A stretch of 64,000 nucleotides of DNA from Psammoneis japonica (lineage: Eukaryota): positions 517,607 to 581,606 of the forward strand of contig QPGO01000005.1 of the NCBI GenBank assembly GCA_008632985.1. The letters are read 5' to 3'. Numbering within the stretch: the stretch's first letter is position 1; each line of letters starts with the position of its first letter. The translations under genes were made by a program, and so were the position numbers. A model generated the notes under the pieces. That model saw nothing but the letters and a program-made list of their open reading frames with translations. It had not been told where the DNA came from and did no database searches. Shown one piece after another: positions 1 to 47,676 of this stretch.

Positions 1-1688
1 CTAAAAAGCAAAAAGATCCCGACATGCCTTCTTTGCACGAGGCCATGCGCAGCGATGAATCCGAAGAGTGGGTCAAGGCTGTGAAAATCGAAATTGACGT
101 GCCACTCCACCGACGTGCATGGGAAATGGTGCCAAGAACGGCAGATGTGAATGCACTACCCGGCACATGGGCTTTCAAACTCAAACGACTCCCGGATGGT
201 GCGCCCTTGAAGTGCAAGGCACGATGTTGCGTTCGCGGCGATTTACAGAAACACGGGATCGATTTTTTCGAGACCTGCGCGCCGGCAGTGCAATGGTCGT
301 CCATGCGCCTTCTCCTCACCACGGTGCTCAAGGAAGGTTGGACCACACGTCAAGTGGACCATGCCACAGCCTTCTGCCAAGCTGACATCAAGGAGAAGGT
401 CCATGTAGAGCCTCCAAAGGGTTTCCAACCAAAATCGGGCGCCGACCTGGTGCCAAAATTATTGAAAGGCCTGCACGGCCTACGCCAGTCTCCCAAGTGC
501 TTCCATGAAAAGCTGAGGGACGGATTGCTCGAAAGAGGATGGATTCAATCCGCCATTGACCCTTGTCTTTATTTCAAAAAGGGCATGCCATGTGTGGCAC
601 ATGTTGACGACACCGTGTTCGCCGGCGCATCGGCCCAAGCCTTGGAAGCAGAGATTGCCAAGTTGGGTGTCTCCAACGATGAGCAACGCCATGTCTTTGA
701 TCTACGTGATGAAGGCGAAGTCGGTAACTTTCCAGGGATCAAGATTCAAAAGCTCGAAGACGGCCGATTCCTCCTGACCCAACCCGGCCTAATTGAGAAA
801 GTTCTCCGCACCGCACAGATGACTGAGTGCAACGGCGCACCTGCTCCTGCCTTGCCTGCTCCTGCTGGCAGCGACACCGACGGGCCACCGTTCGAAGAGC
901 CTTATGACTGCCGTTCCGTGGTCGGCATGCTGATGCATCTAGCGTCCAACAGCCGCCCGGACATTGCTTGCGCGACCCATCAAGTCGCACGGTTCTCCTG
1001 CGCACCCAAGGCCTCCCACGCTGCGGCTGTCAAGCGCATTCTTCGTCACCTGAAGGACACAGCCGATAAAGGACTTATCCTGACTCCAACCGCCGATCAA
1101 CGACTCGACTGCTGTGTTGATGCTGATTTCGCGGGACTCTTCAGTGTTGAAGATGGACAAGATCCCACGTCTGTTAAGTCACGTGCGGGACATGTCATTT
1201 GTTGTGCTGGATGTCCGATTGTCTGGGTGTCCAAGTTGCAGACCCTCGTCGCACTCTCTGCCATGGAAGCCGAGCATGTCGCCCTCTCCCAAGCGATGCG
1301 TGATCTCATCCCCCTTCGCGAGATCGTGAAGGAAATCAACGCGCTCGTTTTCGGACAGCCGGACAGACAGACCGATATTTCGACACATTCGAAGGCTTTC
1401 CGACACGCCAACGACGGAACTGAGGATTCTCCCATTGACTCTACTAACCTCCCAGCATCCGTTGTGTACGAAGACAATGCTGCCTGCCTCCAATTCGCCC
1501 GTGTGCCAAAATTATCCCCACGAACCAAGCACATCGGCATTCCCCACCATTGGTTTCGCACTAAAGTTGAGGCTTTGGAGATCAAAATTGAGCCTGTGAG
1601 CTCAGCTGCACAGCTTGCTGACCAGTTTGCTAAAGGATTGACTGTTGATCTATTCCGTGCTGGTCGCAAAGCCCTCATGGGCTGGTGA
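1..1688 (+). mobile_element. Ty1/Copia (CoDi-type) pol, RT + RNase H, 5'-truncated by the window edge; inactivated by missense changes
   Basis: Copia motifs with Y>H/C changes: CKAR (YKAR), ETCAPAV (ETYAPVV), LHGLRQ (LYGLKQ), HVDD (YVDD), EAEH (EAEY); RNase H EDN...PRTKHI...ADQFAK. Only 3 Tyr in 554 aa. Confidence 0.95.
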
Positions 1689-1715
1689 CTGATAGTTCTC
1701 CTTCTCTTTTCGGTT

Positions 1716-1990
1716 GAGAGGGAGAGTCACGAGTCAACAACCGAGTCTGATTCACGGATGATGCTCCCGGTCATGGATCTCTTCTTCCGGAAGAAATGTC
1801 CGTTGAGTCTTGTAGCGACAGCAATCGGAGTGACACACACGACCGTTGGGTCATAATGTCATCTCCAATCCCTCGTGAGATCTTCTCACAATTCGCATCT
1901 TTAGCGTATCTCATTGTCCCAAAACCTACTTCTTATCATCCTCTGTTGTATTGTACAACCTCAAGAGAGTCCTGAACTCTCCATCCTACA
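1716..1990 (+). repeat. Polypurine tract and probable 3' LTR of the Copia element
   Basis: GAGAGGGAG tract just after the pol stop; segment ends ...ATCCTACA at 1990, where acetamidase similarity starts on the other strand. The LTR start is non-canonical (AGTC) and the partner LTR is outside the window. Confidence 0.5.
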
Positions 1991-2445
1991 CAGTGCATTG
2001 TTGCATCCCAAGTCGACGGAGCAATTTTTCCTCCAAAGCAGTCCAAGGTTTCCACGTGTACAACGTCGCCAGGTTCTATTTCAAGGACTGGTTCATGGGA
2101 TGCAGAGAACGAAAAGTGGTGATGTTTGTTGGACAAAAAGTGATCCGCTCGTTCAAATTCTCGCGGCAGATGTCGCAGCTTCGACAAGGTCTGTTTTTCT
2201 CGCGCTGGCAATTCTTCAATCGCACCATCCATCTCACTGGGAGAATCTTCAACGACCTGAAGAGCTGCCTTTTTGACACTGTCAATCTGGAAAGCCGAGT
2301 GAGCCTCGGAAACCGCAGAAGCTTTGGCTTTGTTGCGCTTTCTTTCTGCCGCCTCTTTTTCTGCCTTGGCGGCAGTTGCTTCTGCAGCCTTTTTCTTTTT
2401 CTTCTTGTTAAACATGAGCGACGCGTCAAACCCTGCACTTCGCAC
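1991..2445 (-). pseudogene. 5' part of an acetamidase/formamidase-family gene, apparently interrupted by the Copia element
   Basis: HHFSFSASHEPVLEIEPGDVVHVETLDCFGG matches the FmdA/AmdA N-terminal motif; the frame runs into the putative LTR and stops at 1936. Confidence 0.6.
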
Positions 2446-2704
2446 TGCTCTACTAGCAGAGTATATTCAAGGGGAAAAAGAAGAAAGAGAGCCCAGCAAT
2501 AGCAGCAGCAACAAGCAACAACAGCAACAACAAGCGATAAAGTGAAAAGTGATGAGTGATTTACGATTTGGTCGTCTCTCGCGGCTTTTTGACTTTTTCG
2601 CATTTTACTTTTGAATTTCGTATTTTTTCAATTCTTCAGCCTTTTCACGAAACTCGCATCAACCACACACATCTTTTCAACCTTGAACACAAAAACGACG
2701 GGAG

Positions 2705-3664
2705 ATGTATTCTGCCGGCATATGCCTCTCAAAACTGCCACGATGGAAATTGCAGTCCATTTGTTTTGTTCTAACCATAGCCGTGGTAGCAGCAGCTGGC
2801 CCTTTTCGGAATGGATTGGCGTTTGGAGGCGTCTTTGCATCTCGACAAACACACCGCACAGATCGCTCCACATTGTGCATCAGTAAGGCGTCTGCCACCG
2901 CCGAACAGGAAGGATTATATCGCCCTTTTGTAGAGCATGCATGGAATATGTTACAATCAAGCGGGTTGTTTGTTCCAATCAACGACTTGCCGTCGGATCT
3001 TTTGTTCAACTCTGCGCCCGCAAAAGGAATGCCACCAGACAGCGTCGTTCAAATGCAAGTCAAAGCCATGACACCAACAGAAAATGCATCTTCAGTGGTA
3101 AGATATGCACGATATGCTCTTTTGGAAACATTGGTTCCATCATCTGAGAAGAATTCGACAGCTGGCATTCAAATTATGAACTTGGTGGTATTCCCGTCGC
3201 AGTACGAGGCACTGCCGGTTTGGGGTGTCGATCTTGTGAGCTTGCCCGGTGGGCGACATTTGCTAGCCATGGATGTTCAGCCAATGTCAAAAGAGTATGA
3301 AATGGGTTCGAGCTGGGACAAGTGGCATGAGAAGCATGTACAGGACGTTTTTGAATGGGGCGGAGACGTGCCCGAGGAAGCGGGACGCTTCTTCTCCAAG
3401 AATGCGCTATGGACGAGGCTCAAGGGAGGCGAAAACGCCACCAGCATCATTCAGACAAAAGTGTGGGATGCTTTCTGTGAACACTTGGAGTTGTACTTGG
3501 AAATGCTTAACAACCACACGCCAACCGAATCATCACCAAATGTTCAAAAGGAGTATTTGCAGTATCGACTACAGAACGATCCAGCTCGACCAATGTTGCA
3601 GAGTCTTTACGGGCCAGAATGGACAGAAGAGGTTCTGGAAACTGTTCTTTTTCCATCCTTGTAG
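2705..3664 (+). CDS. pebB: Ferredoxin-dependent bilin reductase, PebB/HY2-like, probably plastid-targeted
   Basis: LPVWGVDLVSLPGG, WGGDVPEEAGRFFS, YLQYRLQNDPARPML..LYG.EWTE motifs; hydrophobic N-terminus followed by GLAF, resembling an ASAFAP bipartite signal. Confidence 0.85.
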   Translation: MYSAGICLSKLPRWKLQSICFVLTIAVVAAAGPFRNGLAFGGVFASRQTHRTDRSTLCISKASATAEQEGLYRPFVEHAWNMLQSSGLFVPINDLPSDLLFNSAPAKGMPPDSVVQMQVKAMTPTENASSVVRYARYALLETLVPSSEKNSTAGIQIMNLVVFPSQYEALPVWGVDLVSLPGGRHLLAMDVQPMSKEYEMGSSWDKWHEKHVQDVFEWGGDVPEEAGRFFSKNALWTRLKGGENATSIIQTKVWDAFCEHLELYLEMLNNHTPTESSPNVQKEYLQYRLQNDPARPMLQSLYGPEWTEEVLETVLFPSL

Positions 3665-4265
3665 TATTCAAGTACCTTAGATTGGCAGAAATCCAACGCG
3701 TCTTAGCAGTCAGTAGTTGTCATCTCGTTTTTGCAACGGGCTGTTTATATGTTGTAAAGGGATGACTTGTTCAACTTCATTGACGGTCAAGAGATACCGG
3801 TAAGAGTCTGGGTATTCATGAAGAGAATACCTGGGATTCTTTCAATACCTGTACACGGGATAAGGGCCTGGCTATTAATTTCGAAAGAGAATAGCTGAAA
3901 CCTGAGACTCCTTCGATGCTTCTGGCTTTCTCATGTGAGGACGGAGGAGGCGGTTCTCCCGAGAATCAAATCTACGATATAGTCTACATTTATGTTGGCC
4001 GCGATGAAAATTACATGCACACCATTCTTACAAGGGCCACTGCAAAATAACACAGAAAACAGATCGAAACCCAGACATGGGAACCAATCTGGTACCACGT
4101 GTTTGTTCACCGTCAATCAAACAGTTTTATTCTGTACCAGATCAACACGTTTGGCACTTCATTACTGAAATAATTTTTCAACATACCAATGTTCGATTCT
4201 CAGCACCAATACTAGTACGGTACCGGTACCGGTAGGCCCTAGGGCCTAGACATGCAACGGGTTAA

Positions 4266-4755
4266 GGTGGTACGGGTACAAAAGTGGGCCAGATTCTACG
4301 TATGTAGAGCTTAGTATGTTTTCTACACAAATCGCCAAAGTCGGCTCGCCAACTTGAACCCTCTCCAGGACGATGGAAACTTGGACATTTCACATAACAA
4401 AGTGATTCGACTACTTAATTACACTCTCCTCGACTTGTTTAGGGAAAGAAGTTACAAGTTTTCATAGGTTTCTGATAATATATAACGAATCTAATCAGAA
4501 AGGTGCCAAAATCGCGACGTTCGAGTTTTAAAGAGCCATACAAAACGAGAAACCCATGGAAACTTGTAACTTCTCTTCATAAACAAGTCGAGGGGAGTGT
4601 AATTAAGGAGTCGAAACACTTTGTTATGTGAAATGTCCAAGTTTCCATCGTCCTGGAGAGGGTTCAAGTTGGCGAGCCGACTTTGGCGATTTGTGTAGAA
4701 AACATACTAAGATCTACGCGCGTAGAATCTGGCCCACTTTTGTACCCGTACCACC
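4266..4755. mobile_element. Non-autonomous MITE with about 207-bp TIRs and TTAA target duplication (Kolobok-like GG..CC ends)
   Basis: 4266-4472 is a near-perfect inverted copy of 4549-4755; TTAA at 4262-4265 and 4756-4759; no coding capacity. Confidence 0.85.
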
Positions 4756-5027
4756 TTAAAGGGGAAACTGTCGCAGAAAGGCAGAAAAAGACAAAAAGTG
4801 AGACAGATCTCTGTGTAACAAATAGAGTGTCCAGTGATGTAGACAAAAATAAAGATTTTTCTTTATTCGAACATGAAGAAAAATTTAAAAGTTATATTAG
4901 AAGATCTACCTTTCAGATATAACATAATATGTTGTTGTCGTCTTGCAATGCCCGTCTTCAGAGATCGGCCATGAGCGCAACAACAAACAACAATTAAATT
5001 GCAACCGCACTATGAACAGTCGCCGCC

Positions 5028-7805
5028 ATGACAAAGTCTCATCGTCGTAACAAAGGAAAGCAAGCACATCAAGAAGAACCGCCTTCTGTGGACATTACTG
5101 AGAAGGAGGAAACGATGCCCGAGAGCAAGGACGGAATAAGTGACGAGAAAAACGAAACGGAACAACAAGTTAACCGCAAAGATCAAAATGCCAACGCAAC
5201 AGCAGCAGCAGCCGCAGCAAGTAGCAAAGACACTCCCCAACCACATCAGCAACCGCCTCCTCCCCCTCCTCCATCTACACGTGGTACTCTTGTATTGACA
5301 AGCGGCAAACGACGTGGTATCTACGAGTGTGATTATTGTCATTCAGATATTTCTCAAGTCCCACGAATTCAGTGCGCGAACTGCCCTGAATTTGATTTGT
5401 GTCTGGATTGCTTTGCCACGACGGATCACTCGGCCGCCATTGCGAGACTCAAGGCACGAGGACAAGTTCATGATGCCGTCGTTTCGACGATCAAGTCGGG
5501 AGTTTCGGCTGCAGCGGCTCATCATGATTGCAGTCATGGATACCGTGTAGCCGACAGCACGCGATACCCGCTCTTTCCTGCGGTTCGTGCCGTTGTCAAA
5601 CCAAGTGCGAGTTCCGACACTACTGATACAGCAACCTCCATAGAAAAGAAGGATGACGCTGAATCTTCCAAATCTGACTCTCCGCCTTTGAAGAAACTCA
5701 GGGTAGATGACGAAGGATCCAGCAAGGCCGAATCACCGGATGCTATGGAAATTGACACGCAAGAAAAGAAAACCACCACGGCTGTTCCAGAAGCAAAAGA
5801 AGTAGCTTCACAAGAACACCAAGATAAACCAATCACTGGAGCTCCCTCTACAGTGAAAGAGACCGAAGCAAAGACTGGTGAAAAGTCGCAATACGCGTCG
5901 CCGTCGGAGCTTATGGTTCTTCCCGACGACCCCAAGTCCATCTGGACCGTAGAAGAGGACCTGAGGCTCTTGGATGCCATTGAAACATGCGGAATGGGTA
6001 ATTGGGTCGACATTGCAGAGGCTATCCAGGGCAATGGCTCCTCCAACAAAACGGCTAAGCGCTGTATGGAGCGATACTTTGACGACTTTCTGGGACGTTA
6101 CGGTCACATTCTCCCGCCCTTTACATTTGTACAGGAGGACAGCGACGACGGAGAACAAAAGGGAAACGAAGACGTTCACGAGACTCACTCTGACACGGAC
6201 CTTGCCGGGAGTGCGAAGCGACGACGAGTGGAACGTCCCTTGTTTCGAAGTCAGAGTGTCATGTCCACCATGTCCAATGTCAACATTATGAAAAAGGCAA
6301 AGGTTGCGCCGACACCGTCATTGCCAGGCTATGACAAGATATGGCCAGACCCTTACATTCCACCCACTTCCAATGCAGCAATGGATCAGCAAGTTGGTCG
6401 GGATCTAACCATGAAGGCAGAATATCAATACGTCAAGACGATTGGAAATGCGGAAAGCAAGGCTGAAGTAGACAAGATACGTAAGGAATGGATGGAAGCA
6501 AACAAAGACAACAAATACGGACCAACCGTGTTCCCACCACGCACGGCTGATACGGCAGAATTACCGGGAGCCGAGTTGGCCGGTTACATGCCTCGGCGCG
6601 GGGACTTTGATATGGAATGGGACAATGATGCCGAAACCATACTGGCTGACATGGAGTTTTCGCCCGACGATTTGCCACAAGACCGCCAGCTCAAGATTCA
6701 AGTGATTGAGATCTACAATGCCAAGTTGGACGAGAGGGAGCGTCGCAAGAATTTTTTACTGAGTCGGAATCTTACGGATTATCGAAGGAATCAACAAGCG
6801 GATGCAAAGCTGCCGCGAGACGAACGAGATTTGGTTCGCAGGATGCGTTTATTCGAACGGTTGCACACGCCCGAAGAGCATAAGCAATTCATTGCTGATC
6901 TACTAAAGGCGAAACGTCTTCGTAAGGAGATTGCAAAGCTGCAGATGTACAGACGCATGGGTATTCGAACCATGGCAGAGGCAGAACGTTATGAGCTAGA
7001 CAAGAGTCGACGGGAGTATCACAAAGCTGCTCAAGTGCAAAAAGAGTTAGAGATCGAAAAAGCCAAGCAGGCCGCTGCAAGGGTAGCAGCTGCCAAGGAA
7101 GCCGATGTCGAGACTGACGGAGGCGGTGACGGCGTGACTTCCACTGGAGCTGTTGACTATGAATCAATCACTTCTTCTTCTTCGTTGTGGAAACAGTACA
7201 AAGCGAATGATCGCTCGAATCGACGAAGCATCAATCGTGGGAGTTCTTCGATCTCTATTACTTCAGTGCCATCTGCGTCGGGAGAATCCAATGCTGGCTC
7301 GCCGGCAAAAGAAGAGAATGACGCAAACGCGGGAGAAAACAAAGCTGAAGCTGGCAAACCGCAGGCAGAAGGCACCGAGTCAGCAGAAAACAAAGTAAGT
7401 GAAACCAACGGAGAGCCGATGGAAGTGGAAGTGCACGTTTCAGAGGCCCAGTCTAAGCCTGAAGCTGTAGTCGAGGCTGACGACAAGAAAGACGTTCGAG
7501 AAAACAAGAGTGATGATAAGCAGAACGCGACATCGTTCGACATTACTTCTTCTCGGGGGTACAAGTTGCTAACCAAGAACGAGGTGGGGTTATGCGAGAG
7601 ACTCCAGCTACTGCCAGCGCACTATCTGGAAATCAAAAAGGCGCTCATAGAGGAGTCCCTCACCCGTGGCCTTTTGGATAGGGAAGGGAACGCATCGCAC
7701 AAGCGTGCAATTGTCAAGATTGATGCGGAAAAGCGTGGCGACGTTATTGACTTTATGGTTCGCGCCGGGTGGATATCAACTTCAGTGGGCGCATCTAGTG
7801 CATAG
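5028..7805 (+). CDS. ADA2: Transcriptional adapter ADA2 (SAGA subunit)
   Basis: ZZ finger CDYC..C..C.EFDLCLDCF, SANT WTVEEDLRLLDAIE..GMGNW, ADA box GYMPRRGDFDMEWDNDAE, C-terminal SWIRM-like domain; intact 925 aa. Confidence 0.95.
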   Translation: MTKSHRRNKGKQAHQEEPPSVDITEKEETMPESKDGISDEKNETEQQVNRKDQNANATAAAAAASSKDTPQPHQQPPPPPPPSTRGTLVLTSGKRRGIYECDYCHSDISQVPRIQCANCPEFDLCLDCFATTDHSAAIARLKARGQVHDAVVSTIKSGVSAAAAHHDCSHGYRVADSTRYPLFPAVRAVVKPSASSDTTDTATSIEKKDDAESSKSDSPPLKKLRVDDEGSSKAESPDAMEIDTQEKKTTTAVPEAKEVASQEHQDKPITGAPSTVKETEAKTGEKSQYASPSELMVLPDDPKSIWTVEEDLRLLDAIETCGMGNWVDIAEAIQGNGSSNKTAKRCMERYFDDFLGRYGHILPPFTFVQEDSDDGEQKGNEDVHETHSDTDLAGSAKRRRVERPLFRSQSVMSTMSNVNIMKKAKVAPTPSLPGYDKIWPDPYIPPTSNAAMDQQVGRDLTMKAEYQYVKTIGNAESKAEVDKIRKEWMEANKDNKYGPTVFPPRTADTAELPGAELAGYMPRRGDFDMEWDNDAETILADMEFSPDDLPQDRQLKIQVIEIYNAKLDERERRKNFLLSRNLTDYRRNQQADAKLPRDERDLVRRMRLFERLHTPEEHKQFIADLLKAKRLRKEIAKLQMYRRMGIRTMAEAERYELDKSRREYHKAAQVQKELEIEKAKQAAARVAAAKEADVETDGGGDGVTSTGAVDYESITSSSSLWKQYKANDRSNRRSINRGSSSISITSVPSASGESNAGSPAKEENDANAGENKAEAGKPQAEGTESAENKVSETNGEPMEVEVHVSEAQSKPEAVVEADDKKDVRENKSDDKQNATSFDITSSRGYKLLTKNEVGLCERLQLLPAHYLEIKKALIEESLTRGLLDREGNASHKRAIVKIDAEKRGDVIDFMVRAGWISTSVGASSA

Positions 7806-7811
7806 ACAACT

Positions 7812-8101
7812 TTCATAAGACCTCTAGTTCGAGATATGATGTGGACAAGGAAGCTGTTAGTGATTGATACATCTTTAGTACTTCTACCGTAGGGTTCTTT
7901 GTGACATTCGTTGTCCGGATGAAAGTCTTGTGGATGTCTGCAATTTCAGATCGAGTAGGCGGATTGTGTGGCTGGTGCGAAAAGGCTACTAAGTGGTGTT
8001 GTCGGCTAGCGCCATAGCGTCTCACCACAAGGTACTACATTACGGCTCTCTCATGGGAGCCCCTATCGCCTGATAAATCAGTCGAGCTAAGTTACCGTAC
8101 C
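7812..8101 (+). repeat. 290-bp dispersed duplicate, copy 1 (TpA intact)
   Basis: Colinear, without indels, with 10205-10494. Confidence 0.95.
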
Positions 8102-8284
8102 CTGCTACATACCTCACTCTCCATCGTGAATCGTGAGTCTATGCGCGCGGTATACGGTCGACGCATAAAGACTCACGATGGAGAGTGCTGCTACCTAGCT
8201 CTAGCTAGTAACCCATGGCAGCCTTCACCTTTCTCAAATCGGACTCCTTCTCGTAAAAGACGAACCAAGTGTTGTCTCTGTTCC
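8102..8284 (-). repeat. Duplicate of the 3' end and UTR of the exonuclease-KH gene (TpA largely intact)
   Basis: Colinear with 46419-46601; encodes NRDNTWFVFYEKESDLRKVKAAMGY-stop. Confidence 0.95.
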
Positions 8285-8740
8285 ATCCTTCAAGTCGTGC
8301 ACGAGCCACGCTCTCGCATTCGGGCATAAAACAGGTTGCTGCCGGAAATGTTCGGCCGGGTGTGGAAATCACTTGAGGGGGCGGTTCCTTCATGTCACTG
8401 TTACCACCGAAATAGTCTACAAACAACTGTGGAGATGCAGCAGCCGACATGAGCACAATTTTGAGGTCCTTTTGTTTTTGAAGAAGAATCTTGAGTAGCG
8501 TCAAGCAGAAATCTGTGTTCAAGTCTCGTTCATGTGCTTCATCAATCACCAATGCACAACAACGAGAAAGAGACAGCCCGTCCCTGTCGGTCTCGTTTGG
8601 GTCGTTGACCAGCATACGAACAAGGAATCCCAACAGTACAGTGCACCAATTTCGTGGTGGACTCACTCATGGCTCGGTTGAGGCGCACCACATAAAACCA
8701 ACTTGTGACTCGGGTTGACCTGGGATTCGACAATGTGCGC
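8285..8740 (-). pseudogene. DEAH-box RNA helicase gene fragment
   Basis: VVRL...KLVHCTVG, LVIDEAHERDLNTDF, LKIVLMSA, PGRTFP motifs; frameshifted and truncated. Confidence 0.85.
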
Positions 8741-10204
8741 TGAAGATCTCATCCTAGACTAGGTCAAGGACTGCCTCGCCAAGAACCACTAAGAAGTAAC
8801 TCAGCATTAGAGCACTTAGGAGTCTCATAGAGTAGAGCTTTCGGCAACACTCTACTCCGCACTGGGGGGGTTGGGCAAACCCATGCCCTCCGCAGGGTCT
8901 CGAGTGGAACTCGAGGGCTCGAGAATGGGTTTCCCGGACCATGCTCCGGGCGCTTCCGAGGGGGCCCAGTGGGGGGTTCCTTCGGCATTACGTGACGTCG
9001 GCACCCCGAACTGGGGAATCCCCGAACTCGGAATTGATGGCAACGCCAGACGCCAATGGATTCCCTTCGTAGTTGGGCGTCGTCGAGAGCATGGAACGGC
9101 AGGAAAGCATCCTAAACTTTGCCGATAGACTCCCGCGGTCTTGTCTACAAAGGTGAGCACAAATCCAGGGAGTGGTGGGTGGGCAGCAAAAAATGGCCAT
9201 TCCAGTGCTTTGATGTGGTCCAGTCACGTTGATCAGGGTTCCTGTCTCAACAAAGATGGAAAAGTGAGAGAAAACAGGATGCCGATGAGTTTGACCGGTC
9301 ACAGTGACCGGTCATCTTGGCCCAGAGGTGCCCTCTTCCGGAAGAGGCATTTGTCGTTGGCCCAGCTAGATGAGAGGTCTTGCTTTGCACGGGTCGTCTC
9401 CATCTGGGTGAACTTGGGTGCGAGGAGTGCTGGACACGACCGTCAGAAAAATCCAACGGACATTTTTTTCCTCATGCCTGGCTGTACGTAGCACGTTTGG
9501 CACGGCGTCACACGCAAAGCACGAGCTCGAATTTAATGTTTTAGCAACCCGGAACGTTGCAATCGCTGCAATCGTTGCATTTGCACTTTTTTCCCCGTGT
9601 GAATGACACGTGTTTTTGTCAGGAGGTGGGGACATCGGGGGACATTTGGGGACACACCACCACGAGCTCTTTCGTGCAGAGCAGCACTGAGTTCCATGCA
9701 TGCACGACATTCGGCATTTTTCTTTTCACTGCCACCATGACAATTGGTTGATTTGCAGTGCCGCTCTGCTTGTCTAACGGCAGAGTGGGTGCTTCGACAC
9801 CTGCCCATTTTGAAGACAAAATGCAAACAGCCACAGCTTCCACTGCAGCACACTGCGTTGCAAACCACAGCAGATGCGTGGTGCGGTTTGAACAACATGG
9901 AATCCTTTCAACGAATTCTAGAGCATGCAACGCTGAAGCGTGCAAGACAAAACAAGAAGAAAAAAGGGCCAGCCGAACTCCGTTTGTACGAGATCAGAGT
10001 GTCTCCCACTTGCATGTTGGCACACAGCAAGTTCCAAATGTCGAGATTGAGCGTCCAGAGGCCGACCTTCTTCTTGACCTTGGCATCGGGCAGCCGAATC
10101 ACTGCGCTGCTAAAGATGGCATCAAACTCGTCAAAATCACCAATGGCCAAGTGACGGCATAGAGAGAACTTTCCTTGATCTTTGTCGGTGAACTCGCGAA
10201 GGAA

Positions 10205-10494
10205 TTCACAAGACTTCCAGTTCGAGACATGATGTGGACAAGGAAGCTGTCAGTGATTGATGCATCTTTGGCACTTCTGCCACAGGGTTCTTTGTGACAT
10301 TCGTTGTCCGGATGAAAGTCTTGTGGATGTCTGCAATTTCAGATCGAGCAGGCGGAATGTGTGGCTGGTGCGAAAAGGCTGCCAAGTGGTGTTGTCGGCT
10401 GGCGCCACAGTGTCTCACCACAAGGTGCTGCATTGCGGCTCTCTCATGGGAGCCCCCATCGCCTGACAAATCAGTCGAGCTAAGTTGCTGCACC
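10205..10494 (+). repeat. 290-bp dispersed duplicate, copy 2 (TpA converted)
   Basis: Aligns to 7812-8101; 21 of 22 TpAs replaced by CA or TG. Confidence 0.95.
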
Positions 10495-11560
10495 AAGACC
10501 GATTGTCAGTTGCATTGGTGGCTTCAACGAAATCTTTTCAAACTGGTTGGACAAGAAGATGAAAGAGCTTCTCACCCTCTCTTGCTCATGCATCCAAGAT
10601 TCGCATCAAGTTCTTTCGGATTTGCGAAAACTGGGAACCTTGCCTCAAGGTGCAAAGCTTTTTGCTGTCAATGCCATCAGCATGTGTTCGAACATCGACA
10701 CAAATCATGCCCTGGAAGTCTTTCAAGATTGGTTTGATGCCTGCCCTGAAGAAATGCCAGACGATTTCCCAACAAAGTTCTTCCTTTCTGCCCTCAGTGT
10801 CATCATGACATGAAACATCATCCAGTTCGATGACACTCACTGGCTTCAAACTTGCGGAACAGCAATGGGAACCAGCGCAGCTTGCATGCATGCAATGCTG
10901 TGCAAAGCTTTGCATGAGCGCCAAGCACTGAAGATGCACTTCGGCACCAACCTCATGTGCTGTGGCCGCTTTGTTGACGACATCCTCAGAGCATGGACCA
11001 GAGACCCCGACGCGACATGGACAGAATTCAAAAATGAAATGAACAACTCTGGCCCTCTTGCATGGGAAACTTCCCCGCTCTCAACCTCCGCCACATTTTT
11101 GGATCTCGAAATCCAATCGGAGCTGACGACAGAGTCATCACTCGCGCGTGCCAAAAACCGATGAATCTTTTTTTTTTACATCCTGCCGACTTCGGCACAC
11201 ACCCCAGGAGTGCCAAAAAGCATCGTGTGCGGCAATTTACGACGCTTCTGGATGCAAAACTCCAACGCAACAGATTGCATCACTGTTGCCAGGAACTTTG
11301 CGAACCATCTCGAGGAAAGAGGACATGATCGAGCCACGCCACGCGAAATCTTCATGGAAGCCGCGCAGCGCCTCTGCTCCTCCTTGTCACCACACCGCTC
11401 CAATGCTGCTGCTGACCCAAATTCTGCACCATTCTTTCATGAAGAATTTCACCCACGTGGGACACCACGTGTCTGCATCCGCCGGGTGCACGAGCAAACC
11501 TTGCAGGGCCACTCTGGCTTCGACCATTTCGCACTCGCTCACTCACGACCATGAAACTTG
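10495..11560 (+). mobile_element. Penelope-like retroelement RT remnant
   Basis: RPIVSC, AISMCSNID (SMYTNID), QFDDTHWLQTCGTAMGT, GRFVDDI, TFLDLEI, KPMNLF motifs across a stop and a frameshift. Confidence 0.75.
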
Positions 11561-12109
11561 AGAGACGCTTCAATGCGCACTCGAGTGCAAGAACCAGAAG
11601 GGCAGTGCGCATCCAACTGCATGGAGCTCTTAGATCTGGAGCTCTGAGTTGGCAACTTCATTGCAGTGACACATCTCCGGCAAAAAACTCCAGCGGGCTG
11701 CCTCCCGCGCCTTTGGCGCTTCGGCTTGTGCCCACTGGAGTTTTTTTAGGGTTGTGCCAAACCCTGACCCCACTCTTTTCATGCAGTCTGCCCACATGCC
11801 CCAGTCTTTTGCAGGCAATCCCAGTGTGTCATTGGGACCACCAATGCCCATTTTTTCTCCACTGGAGTTTTGGGCCGAAGACATGTGCGCTTTGCGCGCA
11901 TCGGCATTTTTCAATGGTCACATCCGAGCTGTGATGGCAACGACCATTGAAAATGGCCGATCTTGAAATTTTTAGCTCACGAGAAAAAAATGCCAACCAC
12001 ACTGATGAAGCAAAAAGCGAAAGCTCACATCGTCAAGCTTTGTGGGTTCGCAAGACTCCAGTGAAGTCTTGTCAGTGCTGCAGGCATTTGCACACTCGAA
12101 AACCTTGGT

Positions 12110-12560
12110 GGCAATGATGAAAACAGGTGCGTCAGGAGCGGCTCGACTCCACTCTTCTGGCCACACAATTTTTTGTTTCTTGAGTGCTTGTGTCTTTTTA
12201 ACATAAAACCAAACCCACTTGCGTGCCATGTTCTTGCAGACATCAAAAATGGCCGATTGGACCTCCTCTGTCTTGCAGAGTTTCAAGAAGTTAAGCGCCA
12301 TCAAGAAATGATCCAAGCAAACGTCGTCAGGATCAACCGGGGCCTTTTCAATCTCTGTTGTTTGGAGATCATGAAAAATTTGCTTGTGAACTTCAGGAGT
12401 GGATCCGTGTGGCTTTTTGAATTGTCGGATGTTGCGATCCTTGCCAGACCTCTTTTGGCAAAGCAAGTTGACGCCGTAAAGCTCCAGCCCCTTTCATCAT
12501 TGCACAGCCCAGCTCTCAGTGAAATGCAACAACCAAAAAAGTGGAGGAGTCAACAATGAA
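12110..12560 (-). mobile_element. PIF/Harbinger-like transposase N-terminal remnant
   Basis: HFLMALNFLKLC.TE....IFDVC..MARKWVWFYVKK.QALK..KIVWP...VFII, truncated where the first catalytic Asp (VDG) would follow; family recognised from memory. Confidence 0.6.
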
Positions 12561-21764: not shown

Positions 21765-24700
21765 TCAGGTGTGATGCGGTGCGACGCGACGCACTTTCAA
21801 TCGTTCTGTCACATGAGGTGTGCGTTGGACCGTGAGCGTGCCGTTGGCGTGCACTTGAACGACAGGATGTGGACCGTGAGCTCGTGGCTCGAGCTTGGTT
21901 GGGTCGACAGCCTTGAGCAGAACTTGCCCGCCAACTTGAAAATCGCAGGATCGGCGTTCAGCGTTGGCTCGATGGAGATTCGCATCAACAATCACTTGTC
22001 GGCGTTCTTGAATGGCAGCAAGATCGGCTAGGACCGGCAAGTCAAGAATCACATCACGTTGAAAAACCACAGCACCGGGTGAAATCTTGAGAGCACGAGA
22101 AACCGCACATCGCATTGCATGCATGGCAGTTGCCAATGCATTGTCCACTGGTTGATTGGCCTGCTCAACATTCTGTGGAGGATGAACATGAAGCAAAGTG
22201 CGTAAGATGTTTCCAACAGTTTGATGCATGTGCTCGCATGCCGCATTGGCTTGTGGATTTCGCGACGCAGTCGGAGCATCTTCCACTCCTGCTCGTTGCA
22301 ATGACATTTGAAAGTCCTCTCCAGTGAACTCTCCACCATTGTCATGGATGCACCGGTTGGGACGAGGATGACGAGACAACCAACAATTTTCAAATTGTTG
22401 AGCAATGTGAGACGAGGTTTTGTTGTCGATGCGAACAAGTTCAGTCACATTCGAAACGGTGTCAATGCAAGTCAAAGCGTTGAACTCGATTTCATGGTTT
22501 TGAATTTCAATTTTCCAGGGACCAATGAGATCAACCGCAACTTCCGTCCATGGCAACAAAGGCGCTTCCCGTTCAGGCAGGTCCCCATGTCCAGGGCCTA
22601 AAGTTTTCAAACGTTGACAATCAGCACAATGAAATCTTTCACAGGATTGACGAAGGGCAGGATGACAAAAATGTGCGCCAACAGTGGGATGCATTCGGTG
22701 CACTCCTGCATGTCCCAAAATCCTGTGATGCCATCGTATGACATCATGCAGCAACGCCGTTGGAACACAAATTTTCCACGCAGTCGAAGGATCATTCGGT
22801 CGAGCACGACAACAAATTACAGGACGCTGATTCACACATTCCACAACGAAGTGTTCTGGACATTGTTGTCGCATGTTGTTCAGCTCCACGTCGACGAATT
22901 GGTGTTCTTGAATTCGTTGCACAGTTGCAGGGTTTTGCATTTCCTCGAGAGAAGGACAGCTCAAAAATGATTCACACAGTTCGGGGTCGTTCACGACAGA
23001 AGAGTAAAATGGAGATGGTTCTTCACGACGATGGGAAAAATGAGACACACGGTTTTGGTCGTCCAGTTCTTCTTCATGCGGCAGCACAGCAGGGTCGATC
23101 ACCTTAAAATCAATCAGCTTGCCCTTGTTGGGAGCACACTTCCCTTCCGCAGGAGGGTCCACATGCGGCAATCTTGAAAAACAATCCGCCAAGAGATTGT
23201 CTTTGCCATCAACGCATTCGAAAGTTGGGGCAAAATCTTCCAAGAAGAGTCGCCACCTAAGAACTCGTTGAGAATTGAGCGCACGAAAGGTGAGATTTTT
23301 ATGATCCGTAAAAACAGTGCAGTCAGCTCCAAATGACATGCTTCGAAATTCTTTGAAACACATTGCCACCGCCAATGATTCTTTTTCAATCGCAGAGCAG
23401 TTCTGTTGTGCTGCGCTGAGTTTCCAGGACCAGTGAGCCACTGGTTTCCCGTCTTGCACAATTGCGGCTCCCATCTGACAGTCCGAAGAGTCAGCACAAA
23501 CATGGAATGGCTTGTTGTGATTCGGGTAGACCCAAAGGGTGTCGTCCAGCATCAAGGTTTTCACATCTTCAAAGGCTCGTTGACATTCAGGGGTCCATTC
23601 CAACTTGCTCTTGCCTGTCAACTTCGTGAGTGGAGCGAGCACGTGTGAGCGACGAGGCCACATGTTGCGACAACAAGTCACCACACCGACAAACGATCGT
23701 AGTTGCGTCACAGTTTTAGGTGGTTGCATTCGCAGCACCGCTTCCACTTTCTTCTTCCATGGTCGGACTCCTGCAGGCGTGAGCCAATGGCCTAAAAAAT
23801 CTGTCTCTTGGACACACCATTCGCACTTGAGTGGGTTAATTTTCAGATTGTTCTCTTCTAGTCTGGACAACAGCTCATCGAGTCGACGCATGTGAGTGTC
23901 AAACGAATCATCAAATTGAGCAATGTCATCGATGTAAGTTTCAACATCGATTCCTTTTGCCACTTTTTCAATGATGGCTTGAGCAATGTCGGGAGAGGTT
24001 TTCAAACCCATGGCTAATCGACAATGTCGAAATTTTCCAAACGGAGCAACAATGGCACACAAATCCTTGGATTCTTCGTCAAGCTCGACATGACAATAAA
24101 ACACAGTGAGGTCCAACTTGGTCAAGCACTTGCATCCCGAGCGTCGGTGAATGACGTCTTGAATGATCGGCAGAGGACAGACCTTTCGTTTGAGTGCCTT
24201 GTTCAACTCTCGAAAATCGGATGCCCATCGAACTCGTCCATCCTTTTTGGGAGTTACAAAAGTTCCGGCTGCCCATTCAGTTGGTCCCACTGGCTCCAGT
24301 GCGCCAATGTTACACAGATGTTGCAGTTCTTTCTTAAAAACGGCTTCATCCCTCTTGGACACTTCGCAAGCCTTAGAATGGAAGGGAACAGCGTTGGGAT
24401 CAACTTCCAAGTGAACAGTCTCATGCGGATGTTTGCCAAGCGTTCCATCAAAGAGGGTTTCATGCTTTTCAAGCACAGCCTGCAGCTCATCACGTTGTTC
24501 TTGAGCCAAGTGAGTTTGAGCTTGCGCCACTTTCGCGGACGACACTTTCTCGCATTTGGCGTCCATCATGAAAGATTGTCCGAAGGCTTCCTCATCGTCT
24601 TCGTCCTCTCCGTCGTCTTCCAGTGTATCCAACCAATTCTGAGCTGAGTTCCAATGATTGGATTGCTTCATTGGGATCGACGTTTCCAACCACTTTGTTG

Positions 24701-25247
24701 TTCCAAATCGAAAATCAAGCACGATTCCGGCTTTCAACAAAAAGTCTTGTCCCAAAATTAAATCACACTTGCATGGGGCATCAAAAACTTGAGCCGCAAT
24801 GCTGTCGACTTGTTTTGACTTGTCAAATTCTGGCAACATCAAGTCCTTCATGACAACGTGTCGGGAGGATTCATGTCGTCCGGCTGCCATCTGAAAGCTC
24901 AACCGTCCTTCATCGTTCATGGTTGGATTCGCTCCCTTCGGCAAAACTCGAGAATGAACAAGAGTGTCAGCACCTCCTGAATCCAATGGCACTCGCAACA
25001 CTCGCTTGCTCTCTTGATTTTGAATGGCACGCGCCACCATCAACGTCGTTGGCACCACATTCAATGGTTTGGGAGTCGCAGTTTTAGGGGTTGGTGCAGC
25101 GTGCTCCAAAACGCCGCCCAATTTTTCTTCATTCACAGCATGAGATTCCATCAGGTCTCCCACATTGTCATCAACATTAAAACACACATTTTCTTCACGA
25201 TCACGCGAAACATAAAAAGATTGAGCGACACACTCTGACTCGGGCAC
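21765..25247 (-). mobile_element. Ty3/Gypsy pol (PR-RT-RH-IN)
   Basis: LDSG protease, PKKDGRVR..DFRELNK, YIDD, KCEW...FLGH, ADSS, TDHKNL, VDLIG, HDNGGEF, PQANA. Confidence 0.95.
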
Positions 25248-25259
25248 TTCCGTCCCTTG

Positions 25260-27718: not shown

Positions 27719-28687
27719 TGCAATGGCATCGATTTGTCTAACACTTAGAAGAAAGTGCCGAACCGGTCGATGCAGTGTTTCACTTTTTTAGAAAATGTGG
27801 CGCCGAAATGACACCAACACGTCATTCATTTAAACACACAAATGTGCACATGTTTTCCCGCCAAATTTTTCATTGTAAAACGAACATCATGCAATCACTG
27901 TTAAATTTGTGTACCTCATTTCTTTGATCGGCGCTAGTTCCGTGTATCTGCGGGTTGTGCAGACACACGGTTTGGACAAAAAAGCTCCACCCATTTGAGC
28001 TTTTACATGCAGGGCAATCCTTGCTCCCTGTGACCGGTGTAGATGCTCGTCTGTGACAAATGTTGTCATTCCCAAGATCTTTTCTTCCATTTGTTTGTTT
28101 TCTGTGTGCTTTAATTGCCACGTGTTTTTCGTGTAATTTCCTCAAGTGGCAACCCCACACATTGTTCTGCGTCTTTTTCACGTTGGATTTCTGATCAAAT
28201 TTTCTCCCCAATTCATTCCTGCGTGACTTGGTCAATCTTGTCAACCGCCCCCCATGAGACTCAACATGTGCCAATTTTGACTTAACAAAAATGTCGTTTC
28301 ATGACCGCAAATCTACGACCACACGAATCCACGACCACACAAACACGACGCTAGAAGAAATCCATCACCCTTTCATTCCCTGCAACACCCAAATGACATT
28401 GTCCCTCTTGCGACATGTGCAACACCACACCCGGAACATTCTGCCCAATGCCAGAATGATGCACATGTTGTTTTTTGTCTGCATCCCAACGCACACCGGT
28501 GCAACCGATCCAACACCTTTTTTGGGTGCCTGTTCTTTTTCCCAGAATGTTCTTTGTCGAATGCAAGGTACGCCGACCATGATGACATGCCCAGAACAAC
28601 ACGTTCTTTCGTGTCACTGAACAATCTCACCCCGCAATTGCTGTTGCTCTTTTTGTTCTTGGAGACGAAGGACAGGATTTTGTTGTC

Positions 28688-39194: not shown

Positions 39195-39313
39195 CGTTTC
39201 AACAAAAGAAAATTTGAAACTGCATGTTGAAACCAATTTGGTTTCAACAATTTTTTATAGTTTCAACAAAAAATTGTTGAAACCATTAGTTTCAACAAAA
39301 AGTTGTTTGAAAC
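39195..39313. repeat. Cluster of GTTTCAACAA motifs in both orientations (transposon subterminal-like)
   Basis: About 6-8 copies of GTTTCAA(CAA) or TTGAAAC within 120 bp, abutting the truncated LTR. Confidence 0.6.
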
Positions 39314-40959
39314 GGAGATGATCCGATCTGACAGAAATTGAGTGGAAATGGGTGGAAGAAAAACAACACTCATTGCTGCTGTCGAATGGCAGGTGAGTCT
39401 CCACTCCAGAGACCGTTGCAGGAGCCGAAAGACAGGTGTCGCATGATCGGGCTGTTGTCATTGTTCTTGTGAGCCGAGTGGCTCGAGAGCAAAACTCTCC
39501 GAAAAACTGCACAGCGCGACATGCGCGCGGAGCTGAAAGCGCGCACAACTGTGTGTGACAAACACAACACAGCGCGCGACAAAGCGTGCACAACCAAATC
39601 CTGTTCAAATCCTGTCACTCCCCATTTTGCTTGAGGAAGCCACGAGATCTGAGCAGATCCATGTCTGAAGGCGACCTTGAGATCGAAGTCCCAAAGACAT
39701 GAGGGAACAGAGAAGGCTCCAAACCTGGGCATGACCCCAACGCGTGCTGAGAGCATCAGCGGGGTTGTGGGAACCTTCAAGTGCCTCTTCTTCACAAACA
39801 TGATGAAACGCAAGGGTGGTGTGCCATTTGTGAAACTCGGAGTGCGTGATGGTGGCACTGTCCACAACCAACTTGTTGTTGCCAAACATGGAACTAGTGT
39901 CATGGATCGGGACACCAAGGCAATGCAGCGCGGTGCACAAAAAGACAATCATCTGCTCCACACAAGTCTTTGCAGTGACAAATTGAGACTCGCAGGTCGC
40001 AGACTTGACAGTGACTTGCTTGGCAGATGCCAGGGCACAAAAGAGTCTTTGTGGTGGTCACAACCATGGAAGACAAAACACTTGTCACATGGAATCACCT
40101 CGAGGTCCGTTGCATCTCCCCATTTGCATTGGACGCATTCCAGATGCAGGTGGGAATCCCTGCGACATTGGGCCCGTAGAATTCTGCGTGCGAGCTCCGC
40201 AGCAAAACCACACGGCAATTAAAATGCCAATGATCGCCAACAGAAAATGAGGCAATTTTGCGAACGCACAAACTCGCCCATGATTGCATCACATCATTTT
40301 TTGCTCAGCCAGTTGCAACTGGCACATCATTTGATCTGCAAATCCGTTGCATGAAACGTCTGGGGCTTCGCAAAACAGTGAGTCTGGATAAAAATTGTTT
40401 GTGTCACACGTCAGCACCACGAGCTCCCACCCAGGGCTGGAACACGTCATTGGCCATTCTGCAACTCATCTAGAGTCACGGCATGCTGGCAGTTGCAAGG
40501 GACTCCACATCCATGTTTGCAACAAGGCACACTGTGAAGGAAGCAGAGCTCAGTTTGATTGGCCATGCGGCACAGCTCCTTCATTGTTTTTGCAATGCCA
40601 CAGAAATGTTTCCACCCAGTGTTGAAGAGACCACTCACACGTGCATCGATTGCCCCACTCTCGGCGCATCCAGCAATCTTCGCAGGATTGAGAACTGGCA
40701 CTTCAGGCATCCTGATTTCCTTGTCAGACAAATCAGAAGCTCCAACATGATGGGACTTGACAATGGCTGCAGTGCTCTCCCCATCAGGAGGATCGAAATG
40801 CAAGTTGCAGGCCAAAAGGTGTGGGCCCACTTGCCCGGCAATGTCAACAGAGTGCTTGGACTGTGTGAGATGCACCAGGGTTGGGTTGGCATCCATCACG
40901 CTGGCCTTTGCAGAGGGTGCAGGAATCAAAGCATTGTCATGAGGACTTGCAGACAAGTT

Positions 40960-44510: not shown

Positions 44511-46521
44511 TCAGTGGGTCAACAAGCAGTTCGAGACTGTCAATCTGACAGAAATTGAGCGGAAATGGGTGGAAGAAAAACAATGCTCCTTGCTGCTGTC
44601 GAATGGCAGGTGAGTCTCCACTCCAGAGACCGTTGCAGGAGCCGAAAGACAGGTGTCGCATGATCGGGCTGTTGTTGTCATTCTTGTGAGCCGAGTGGCT
44701 CGAGAGCAAAACTCTCCGAAAAACTGCATCGCGCGACATGCGCGCGGAACTAAAAGCACACACAACTGTGTGTGACAAACACAACACAGCGCGCGACAAA
44801 GCGCGCACAACTAAATCCTGTTCAAATCCTGTCACGATCGGCGATTTTTGACCTCTGTGAAAACACGAGAGAGAGGGCCTTGGAGATGTAGACTGCTGGT
44901 TCAGCAAAAATGGCCTCACTGTCATCCAAGTCAAGCAGCAATTTTGCCGCAAGCTCACAATCACACTCTGCTGCTTGCACAGGGCCGTGACATGAGTTCC
45001 TCGTGCATGTGCCAGGGTGAGTGAGATCAGCTTTGGCCATGGCATTCATCCATTTTTTTCCATTTTCTTTGCAGCACTCAGTCACTCTCCTTGAACACAG
45101 ACAGCACCCAATCCAGTCATCCAAAAGCAACAGCACATCCCCTGCAAGCATGCTCAACATCGCCAGCAAATTGTGCTTGTGTCGCCAGCAATCCCATGGG
45201 AGCATGCACTGTTCGTCCCAAACCCATCTGCAGACACAGGCCCCTGAGCAACACTTCTAACTTGACCATCATCTGCACATGTAAAAAACATGTCACCTTC
45301 GTGATCGTCTTGAGCACGGCAAGCAGCATTGTGCTTGCGATGGTTTTTGCAAAGCCTTTCCTTGGAGATTGGCTTTGTTGCTTCGTGCACTTTTTCAAAA
45401 AGATGCTGTAAGTTGTTCTCTGTTGGAGAGTGAATCCCAACCTCAGCACAAAATTCTGCCAACTTTGCCGGCAACAATTCAGCCTTGAATGTGGCCAGCG
45501 CTGCACTCAGGCTCAGCTCCAAAAACTGGCAAGCACCCGTGTTGACAGAGGCATCACTGTCAGAACGACAGGTGAGTGTTTCCCCACAAGTGTTGCAATG
45601 CCACTTCTCTGCACAGTCCCATCCCCACCATGTTTTTGGCTTTTGAGCATCATTTTGTGCCGACACACAAGCGCACGCTGCTGCAGCCCATCTGAGAAAT
45701 CAGTTGACACATCAATGTCAACCAATTTCTCACCCGACTCAATGGTCCCACCACGCTGACTGGTTGCAGACACTGGATCATGCAAAGGCATTTTTTTGAG
45801 CTGTCAGACACATTGGGAGCATCGCTGCCATTGTTGTTCTCCTTGTCATTCTCCTTGTAGCCTGCTTTCTGACAATGTCTGAGTTGCTTCCACGATGGCC
45901 GTGCCGTCCTTTTCTCTGGCTTCACTCAAGAAGTGGTTGTTCCCAATCCCATGAGGTGGGCACTGTTCAGACTCCTGAGCTTGACAGCAGCTGCACTGGA
46001 GTTGTTCCCCCACCAAAGCAACAGTGCAGCAGCGCATCCCTTGGCACGTGTCCACTCACAGAGCAACTGAATTTGAAGTGCCTTGGAGAGCAGACAAGAC
46101 ATTGGACTTACGAAGCCCTGGAAAGCCACCACATTGCAGGGCCTCATGTGTGAGGTCACTGTCCATCCACATGCATTGCAAGCTAGCCGGAAAGGCAGTG
46201 ACAAGAAGTCGCATGGCTTCCGTAATCTCCATGGTCATTTTTGTGTTTTTGTGATGGAAAAAATGTTGTGCTTTTGTCGCTGAGGTACAGACTTGCGGGG
46301 GATCCACATTGAGCATCATGATGCGCAGGCCATGAGATCATGATTCACTTGCATGTGTTCCCTTGTAAAAGAAAACCCTTGAGTGCTTGTCTTTGTCCAC
46401 ATGATGTCACGTTGGCGACTGCCACACACCTCACTCTCCATCGTGAATCGTGAGTCTGTGCGCGCGGTGTGTGGTCGATGCACAAAGACTCACGATGGAG
46501 AGTGCTGCTGCCTGGCTCTAG

Positions 46522-47394
46522 CTGGTGACCCATGGCAGCCTTCGCCTTTCTCAAATCAGACTCCTTCTCGTAAAAGACGAACCAAGTGTTGTCTCTGTTC
46601 CTGTCTTCCTGGCAGATGAGTGCACCCGTGCGTTTCTGAAGGTTCCGCAAATTGCAGCCACGCCGTCCGATGAATGAGCCCACATTTGCCTTGCAACTGA
46701 GACCACTTTCCACCTTCACATCCTTTGCCATGGTGGCACACTTGGCAGACATGTTTTGAGAGGACGAAATCTCACTAGAGTCAAGATCTTCCAGCTGCGT
46801 TTCGGCCAAGCGGACAAGCTTGTCAACATCCGAAGCAGCCCAATCGATCATCCTTGACGTCAGGGGCCTCTCTGCCCAAAATGCTGGGTTGCATTGATGG
46901 ACAGATTTGTCCCTCGCCTCATTTTCGGCGGCGCCATTCCAGGAAAGGACATCGTTTAAACTCTTGTCCTCCATGCCAGTGATGACCGAATGGAAGCAGC
47001 TTGTGTCATGGACACTGTGAGCAAGAATGCCACAGTGATGGTGCAAAGCATCACAGTCCATGCGACAGTCATGAATGATCTTTGCAATTGACTCACACTC
47101 AAAAAGCTTCTTCAGTGCTGCTGGACGCTGCTTTCGAAGGCTGGCATCACCTTTCTTTCCCACGTCTGCAATGAAGACGTCATCTGCAGATGTCTCAGAT
47201 TGGGGGAAAGAGACGGAGACCAGTTCGATTGTTCCCAATTGACTCAGATTGACTCCTTCGCAATCGAATGCGACGCGCATCTCATCTGCTGCTTCATCAG
47301 CCGATGCCACAGCACGATCGACGTTGGCAAAGAATGCAAGTGCGCCCGCACTGGAAGCCCTCTGGGCTTCGTCGTCGACAACAAGCACTGGCAT
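46522..47394 (-). pseudogene. DEDD 3'-5' exonuclease (EXD1/Egalitarian-like) + KH domain gene, hypermutated copy
   Basis: VAFDCEG, KIIHDCRMDCDAL, VHDT, FW..RPLT..MIDWAASDV; KH VGSFIGRRG.N; ancestral stop at 46522-46524 inferred from the duplicate at 8205. Confidence 0.8.
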
Positions 47395-47676
47395 CCTTCT
47401 CGTTCAACAACTTATGCGCCGATTCGTCCGTTCAGTTGATCGCAACTGCAGTGGTGCTCCAAGGAAGTAGCACCCCCACAGGATTTGAACTGAAATCTTT
47501 GAGATTTGATTGGTCCGCGAAAATTTCAACGGCACGCACAAGAGTGACGGTATTATCGCGATTGAGCTTCTGGACTTTTCTATGATGCGTGAATTCATAC
47601 ATACATACATTCGCATACGTTCATCATTCCTTCAACTCTCTATAACGCAATACGGAGAACGACGAAGAATCCTATC

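Follow-up and report, generated by a model that had tools for sequence, protein, structure and literature searches.

Two known systems are among the closest to the pattern reported here. Fungal repeat-induced point mutation (RIP) makes TpA from CpA, according to the available part of the source (PMC2621366). In mutation-accumulation lines of the alga Bigelowiella natans, as told in the available text of a preprint, 231 of 302 nuclear changes fell within two integrated viral regions, and almost all of the changes turned TpA into TpG or CpA, at about 1000 times the background (Mettrop et al., bioRxiv 10.64898/2026.01.13.699255). The larger of these regions, derived from a nucleocytoplasmic large DNA virus (NCLDV), is single-copy and silent, virophage DNA is also a target, and an ADAT2-like (ADAT2/3) deaminase was proposed there as a hypothesis. 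No report of TpA hypermutation in a diatom was found in the literature searched, which left most subscription journals outside its coverage; a Phaeodactylum mutation-accumulation paper describes a GC-to-AT bias, and TpA is unmentioned in the passages available (PMC6604790). Here, we analysed 64,000 nucleotides of Psammoneis japonica (assembly GCA_008632985.1, contig QPGO01000005.1, positions 517,607 to 581,606, forward strand), hereafter the window, in which an earlier note had singled out a 290-bp duplicate as a before/after pair (copy 1 at 7812-8101, copy 2 at 10205-10494; positions are those of the window). The locus is a near-saturating diatom variant of a process that we found reported once, in the B. 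natans preprint.

Alignment of the two copies was free of gaps over 290 columns and contained 26 differences. At the 22 TpA dinucleotides of copy 1, copy 2 reads CA at 12, TG at nine and TA at a single site, GCTAAG, while no CG product was found at any of them. Only 5 of the 246 non-TpA positions differ, namely through three CpG transitions, one C>T outside CpG and one T>A, the only transversion in the 290 bp. The TpA tally of the earlier note was reproduced exactly by this alignment, and its estimate of about five other differences, three of them at CpG, agrees with the exact count. Likewise, its claim that TpA mutates far above background is borne out by the contrast between 21/22 and 5/246 (Fisher test, p = 1.7e-25); a rough per-base excess over background comes to 376 (104-3101), a value that rests on two background differences. 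The 12 CA and nine TG products are compatible with a 1:1 ratio (p = 0.66), and therefore both strands of copy 2 were hit, as the note had also held. TpA observed/expected falls from 1.08 in copy 1 to 0.06 in copy 2, and CA/TG rises from 1.03 to 1.69. No TpA or CpG of copy 2 is absent from copy 1, and every polarisable change falls in copy 2. The changes at TpA are thus restricted to this dinucleotide, affect both strands at one hit per site, and are confined to the copy that lies in a TpA-depleted block. CpG has also been lost from this copy, at a slower pace: 3 of the 14 CpG of copy 1 are altered, and all 11 CpG of copy 2 are CpG in copy 1. Outside TpA and CpG the copies, which are spaced 2.4 kb apart, differ at 2 of about 243 positions (<1%).

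This spectrum bears on error-prone repair synthesis in methylated heterochromatin by a polymerase eta-like enzyme, whose motif is A>G at TA and AA. Tracts of such synthesis could begin at deaminated 5-methylcytosine, since CpG decay accompanies the TpA loss (3/14). However, none of the 110 A/T positions outside TpA turned into G or C, ApA is not depleted in the islands (1.22 versus 1.28), and one transversion in 290 bp is all that the pair contains, which makes repair synthesis quite improbable as the source.

The copies were further compared with contigs from three coded runs of one sample (X1, X2 and X3). In the X1 comparison, which lists 16 of the 266 pieces and 40 of the 154 differences, copy 1 is covered by contigs at 7500-7920 and 7926-8271 with no difference, and copy 2 by contigs at 9864-10313, with one difference (10085), and 10319-11043, with two, all outside 10205-10494. 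As X1 is possibly the source of the assembly, this agreement is a consistency check and adds no independent support. All four copy junctions are spanned by X1 contigs, and since the flanks also differ, an allelic or assembly duplication was rejected. Contig depth across both copies (52-65) is close to that of the neighbouring ADA2-like gene (59.5), and therefore no third close copy is evident among the contigs listed. A sequencing artefact, in which a modified base at heterochromatic TpA is misread as G or C, draws some weight from the fact that the sole run covering copy 2 may be the assembly source and has its platform off the record. We nevertheless consider it very improbable, as the long contigs agree with the window letter at every copy 2 site and each site is fixed as either CA or TG. 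In addition, long direct repeats within the islands (15803-16106/26729-27032 and 39326-39618/44543-44835) show CA/TG swaps, one in 304 bp and three in 293 bp, respectively, and such changes were Sanger-confirmed in B. natans (bioRxiv 10.64898/2026.01.13.699255, available text). X2, guessed to be DNA on the record, covers the ADA2-like gene up to 7833, lacks most of copy 1 and has nothing over copy 2 or the reverse-transcriptase (RT) remnant beside it; one X2 contig, at a depth of 1479, matches an other-locus relative of 9979-10203. X2, whose coverage pattern resembles that of a transcriptome, was left out of the evidence, and X3 contributed no contig.

The direction of change is almost certainly from TA to CA or TG, as judged from related sequences, because homologues side with the unconverted adjoining copy, contigs from other loci keep TA, and tyrosines have been lost from a gypsy element. 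Adjoining copy 1, the 183 unconverted base pairs at 8102-8284 form a second before/after pair with 46419-46601, where 10 of 12 TpA read CA or TG in the island copy. Both stretches belong to a 3'-5' exonuclease/KH gene. In 77 of 120 homologues the protein stops precisely at the tyrosine that, in the flank copy, is followed by TAG; the island copy reads His-Gln there and runs on. The island exonuclease also carries His at Tyr169 (tyrosine in 120/120 homologues) and Cys at Tyr264 (92%). Ordinary CpG decay alone was rejected as an explanation, since it cannot change Tyr to Cys or His. Between the fragments at 9811-10166 and their relatives at other loci, 24 differences are listed, at which the relative reads TA in 13 cases, CG in eight and other letters in three; none is reversed, and the CG row at 10085 also occurs in the island's own contig. 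A reversed case is listed at 8756, within the edge zone.

The gypsy pol of the same island gives a third polarity marker. When compared with 120 homologues, its 19 conserved tyrosine columns hold 10 Cys, five His, three Tyr and one Phe, and all 42 conserved His, Cys, Trp and Gln residues are retained. The 52 mismatches at 383 conserved columns would be undone by one TA in 31 cases, by one CG in four and by neither in 17, and none of them is of the RIP type. TpA observed/expected is 0.46-1.04 in 78/78 related gypsy-bearing metagenome contigs (from the best 80 of 455 stretches) versus 0.12 for the window element, and therefore low TpA is no trait of the gypsy family; a query pattern that contained conserved Tyr, together with the restriction to best matches, may have excluded converted copies from this set. 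Outside the 78 stands the contig of P0190, a Joint Genome Institute (JGI) metagenome protein of 751 aa, which is a gypsy pol 52% identical to that of the window with 11 of 16 conserved Tyr as Cys or His. It is the only one of the 120 homologues with more than two conserved Tyr so replaced, and its source may be a further organism in which this process operates.

These comparisons together uphold the before/after reading of the earlier note, in which copy 1 is the original and copy 2 the converted form. Under the opposite reading, conventional RIP of copy 1, CA/TG would be ancestral and TA gained by C>T at CpA. In form, the 21 differences are identical to RIP products, with 21 of the 61 CA/TG of copy 2 being TA in copy 1, and DNMT4 enzymes related to fungal RID are present in diatoms (PMC9998398, in the part available). 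Yet copy 1 is ordinary and copy 2 the outlier in both dinucleotide ratios, the homologues favour TA in the adjoining pair and in gypsy pol, no RIP-type change was met, and other-locus contigs keep TA. Conventional RIP was rejected, being refuted for the neighbouring sequence, and is scarcely credible for the 290 bp. A Trp-versus-stop difference that falls within the duplicate, in a minus-strand frame at 9980-10249, was discarded as direction evidence, since contigs place this frame in another captured fragment.

Homologues of window proteins carry names from Seminavis, Chaetoceros and Thalassiosira, in keeping with a diatom. Two-state segmentation of the window drew four TpA-depleted blocks, which make up 47,899 of 64,000 bases, about three quarters (Table 1). 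CA/TG is raised in all four, and CpG is lowered in the three large ones. The blocks carry copia, gypsy and other RT remnants; the island that holds copy 2 contains captured fragments, RT remnants, and copia and gypsy elements. Every sizeable normal block has an intact gene, and the intact genes of the normal stretches encode bilin reductase, ADA2-like, PLD-like, aldo-keto reductase, RNase H2B-like, DDRGK and cation ATPase proteins. Among five intact genes that were measured, tyrosine content ranges from 2.1% to 4.9%, compared with 0-0.8% in block frames. The ADA2-like frame beside copy 1 has normal TpA and Tyr content and anchors the unconverted zone, from which TpA stays intact until about 8290, is sparser to 9146 and is almost absent further on. 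Copy 2 sits 1 kb inside the largest block, and both copies are pieces of mosaics.

Table 1. Coordinates of the features discussed, in window positions; dinucleotide values are observed/expected.
Feature	Position	Strand	Remarks
Depleted block	1-1441		TpA 0.22
ADA2-like transcriptional adapter frame, intact	5016..7805	+	ZZ, Myb and TADA2A-like domains; weak SWIRM match
Copy 1, unconverted	7812..8101		22 TpA, TpA 1.08; begins 6 bp past the ADA2-like stop codon
Unconverted fragment	8102..8291	-	3' end of 3'-5' exonuclease/KH gene, Tyr-TAG end (stop 8205-8207), plus hairpin
Edge zone, partly converted	8292..9146		DEAD/DEAH helicase fragment (weak Pfam, E 0.003; Tyr 0.8%); high-depth repeat ends
Depleted block (island)	9147-37720		about 28 kb; TpA 0.10; CA/TG 1.50; CpG 0.74
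Two captured fragments left of copy 2	9781-9964, 9979-10203		relatives at other loci; contigs with loose ends
Copy 2, converted	10205..10494		21/22 TpA now CA/TG; 3/14 CpG decayed; within the TpA-depleted island
5'-truncated RT remnant	10495..11551	+	adjoins copy 2 on its right; one Tyr among 354 residues
Gypsy pol	21765..25259	-	polarity marker within the island
Depleted block	39288-47550		TpA 0.09
Converted full-length exonuclease/KH gene copy	46345..47403	-	in block 39288-47550; Tyr169 to His; stop read through
Depleted block	51610-61230		TpA 0.08

The landscape points to targeting by chromatin domain, which we hold to be probable and favour over repeat pairing because only one of two close, same-age copies was hit. 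In a pairing-triggered reversal of RIP, repeats would be recognised by homology and mutated at TpA. The targets are indeed repeats, and diatoms have the DNMT4 relatives of fungal RID mentioned above (PMC9998398). In addition, 290 bp may be too short for pairing, and mutation spreading from longer repeats may have reached copy 2. This explanation is distinctly unlikely in our view, since the copies lie 2.4 kb apart and have diverged by less than 1% outside TpA and CpG, yet show 0 versus 21 hits, and since the high-depth hairpin at 8115-8187 keeps its TpA. Moreover, conversion extends to an exonuclease gene that appears to be of host type and to the 3' half of the 60013-62031 frame, and the B. 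natans target is described as single-copy in the available preprint text (bioRxiv 10.64898/2026.01.13.699255).

Beyond the dinucleotide itself, a real but moderate preference for TAY over TAR (Y, pyrimidine; R, purine) was observed on the strand of the changed A. When compared with the baseline of the 78 contigs, survival of TpA is 0.024 at sites with TAY on both strands, 0.089 with TAY on one strand and 0.254 with TAY on neither, and the lone surviving TA of copy 2 falls among the sites without TAY. Where a site is asymmetric, the change struck the A of TAY in 10 of 11 cases for the 290-bp pair (p = 0.012), and in 3/5 of the second pair, 5/10 of the contig differences, 16/23 of gypsy pol and 2/3 of the exonuclease. 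Pooled, these amount to 36/52 (p = 0.008), with conservation thresholds relaxed to 0.7 and 0.6 in the protein sets.

Taken as a whole, a locus-targeted TpA mutator with deaminase chemistry is the model that we prefer, at a probability of roughly 55%. Such a mutator would turn the A of TpA into G within silenced, transposon-rich chromatin domains, sparing genes and the few hundred bases that border them. The CpG decay alongside the TpA loss suggests a methylated domain, and the target may thus be marked by CG methylation or heterochromatin. In Phaeodactylum, loss of DNMT5a depletes methylation and derepresses young transposable elements (PMC9998398, in the part available). Adenine deamination by a TadA/ADAT-type enzyme appears to be the most economical chemistry, in which adenine would become hypoxanthine, which replication would fix as G. 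A single hit, whichever strand it falls on, would abolish TpA on both, and this single-hit removal would explain the near 1:1 ratio of CA to TG, the lack of CG products and the saturation. As far as is known, the tRNA target of TadA/ADAT always follows U. For a parallel TAY/YAC preference of TadA, a literature source was sought and none found. As for the history of the locus, copy 1 probably represents the native 3' flank of the ADA2 gene and the donor of copy 2; most simply, a composite mobile element would have captured this flank nearby, giving copy 2 at a distance of 2.4 kb, where it would then have been converted in place.

The same domain targeting could be coupled to other chemistry, either a lesion on T (an oxidised or hypermodified base giving T>C in RTA) or methylation of the TpA adenine followed by its deamination. 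T>C at the T of TpA fits all sequence results as well as A>G does, and both oxidised thymines and N6-methyladenine deaminases exist. No positive evidence for either emerged in this analysis, and a 5' U/T preference is a known habit of adenosine deaminases, as in the 5'UAG hot spot of ADAR (PMC10661471, in the part available), to which the available discussion of the B. natans preprint likewise ties it (bioRxiv 10.64898/2026.01.13.699255). We judge such alternatives to be unlikely.

Several points weigh against the mutator model or parts of it. The 290 bp itself is without an outgroup, the homologues polarising neighbouring sequence only, and one A>G at CpA (Val287 to Ala) occurs in the exonuclease copy. 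The TAY bias varies among the sets, being 3:2 for the second pair and 5:5 for the contig differences, and stood at 18:8 (p = 0.076) before the protein sets joined; those sets bring looser thresholds and codon bias, and the contigs of the survival baseline belong to other organisms. A>G and T>C on the opposite strand are indistinguishable from sequence, the enzyme and the chromatin marking are both read from the sequence footprint, and the deaminase is a hypothesis in the available text of the B. natans preprint also. Finally, conversion of copy 2 might have taken place at another site, ahead of its arrival, and the edge zone could be a patchwork of earlier-converted fragments and not a gradient.

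The only long frame of copy 1, 73 aa on the minus strand, has 0 homologues among 1.84 billion representatives and no Pfam hit, and copy 2 owes the greater length of its frames solely to erased TAA and TAG. The frame at 9980-10249 had no homologue among longer proteins and no Atlas hit. The RT remnant may be Penelope-like, as judged by its motifs and by weak Atlas neighbours (RVT_1 made up 19% of one cluster), and it has no Pfam hit. The hairpin at 8115-8187 has 18-nt arms and a contig depth of 911 versus 50-60 on its left, and it may be the terminus of a small high-copy element; no Rfam match was found within 7500-12500, hairpin included, at E up to 1. An inverted repeat at 4262-4759, with 212-nt arms (94%), lies between two intact genes and keeps its TpA (13/16 shared), like copy 1.

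Further observations concern the blocks. In the host-type exonuclease/KH gene, conversion reaches to about 47400, at a distance of 270 bp from the intact aldo-keto reductase. A 672-aa minus-strand frame at 60013-62031 straddles a block edge and holds a 153-bp tandem repeat at 60715-61020; its 5' part has 3.0% Tyr and 30 TA/kb and its 3' part 0.2% Tyr and 8 TA/kb, and conversion seems to end inside this gene. Within block 51610-61230, which includes an N gap at 51881-52107, CpG is almost erased as well, chiefly at 52001-57000 (observed/expected 0.0-0.3 per 500 bp), unlike much of 9147-37720, where it is only mildly lowered; therefore CpG and TpA decay are not tightly coupled. The long direct repeats compared above are all TpA-poor and mostly share the same converted letters, either because a parent was converted yet still copied or because few TpA were present originally; the pair at 15803-16106/26729-27032, which flanks gypsy plus an inserted copia, probably represents long terminal repeats. 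A 1184-codon Gly-rich open frame of the island (28586-32140, plus strand), with five 180-bp tandem units and no Pfam hit, may owe its length to erased stop codons.

A mutational defence that our searches met in a single preprint, on a single rhizarian alga, would by these findings extend to a second major lineage of eukaryotes, where it is far stronger. The locus offers a natural control, with same-age copies 2.4 kb apart of which one is spared and one saturated, and it supplies exact sites for assays. Since the process turns Tyr into Cys or His and erases stop codons, dead elements keep long open frames and gene callers over-predict; repeat ages taken from divergence are inflated by TpA conversion. 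Should the enzyme prove to be a DNA adenine deaminase, nature would have supplied a rare A-to-G editor of DNA. Only tentatively do we propose that diatoms and chlorarachniophytes share an ancient defence, a TAY-preferring DNA adenine deaminase that rewrites CG-methylated silenced chromatin to saturation. If so, it would be the counterpart of RIP for adenine, guided by chromatin instead of homology, and its enzyme a native A-to-G DNA editor in a double-strand context.

Among known systems, TadA/ADAT2-3, ADAR and APOBEC editing of retroelements resembles the present process in A>G with a 5' U/T preference and in defence by deamination. These enzymes act on RNA or single-stranded cDNA and leave strand-biased marks, whereas here both strands of chromosomal DNA are equally hit, non-retroelement sequence included. 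Fungal RIP (Neurospora and other ascomycetes; RID/DNMT4), which needs RID and a sexual cycle, is similar in that dinucleotide-specific transitions ruin mobile DNA on both strands and leave compositional blocks. Its chemistry and direction are opposite, since it makes C:G to T:A transitions, mostly at CpA, and none of the 52 gypsy pol mismatches is of this type, and it mutates both copies of aligned repeats, whereas one of two close copies is untouched here.

The B. natans process, as far as the available text of the preprint describes it (bioRxiv 10.64898/2026.01.13.699255), differs in several respects. It was observed de novo in a rhizarian, a chlorarachniophyte, while here a footprint is read in a stramenopile, and that text never mentions a diatom or stramenopile. 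TpA is 0.45 in its NCLDV region versus 0.08-0.10 in the three large blocks here, and the targets here are retrotransposons and captured host-gene pieces over three quarters of the window. The CpG decay and the 3' pyrimidine preference seen here are unreported in that text. Its target is single-copy, with which the hit on one of two close copies here would be compatible. The rate is about 1000-fold there and 376 (104-3101) here, the latter being indirect and drawn from two background differences. In both, A>G and T>C occur at TpA only and yield TpG and CpA (with the one CpA exception in the second pair here), the direction is from TA to TG/CA (here from neighbouring sequence), and the changes are confined to foreign, mobile or silent DNA with host genes spared; TpA-depleted clusters in B. 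natans are likewise enriched for transposon domains. Judged by these shared sequence-level features, the process in P. japonica works like that of B. natans.

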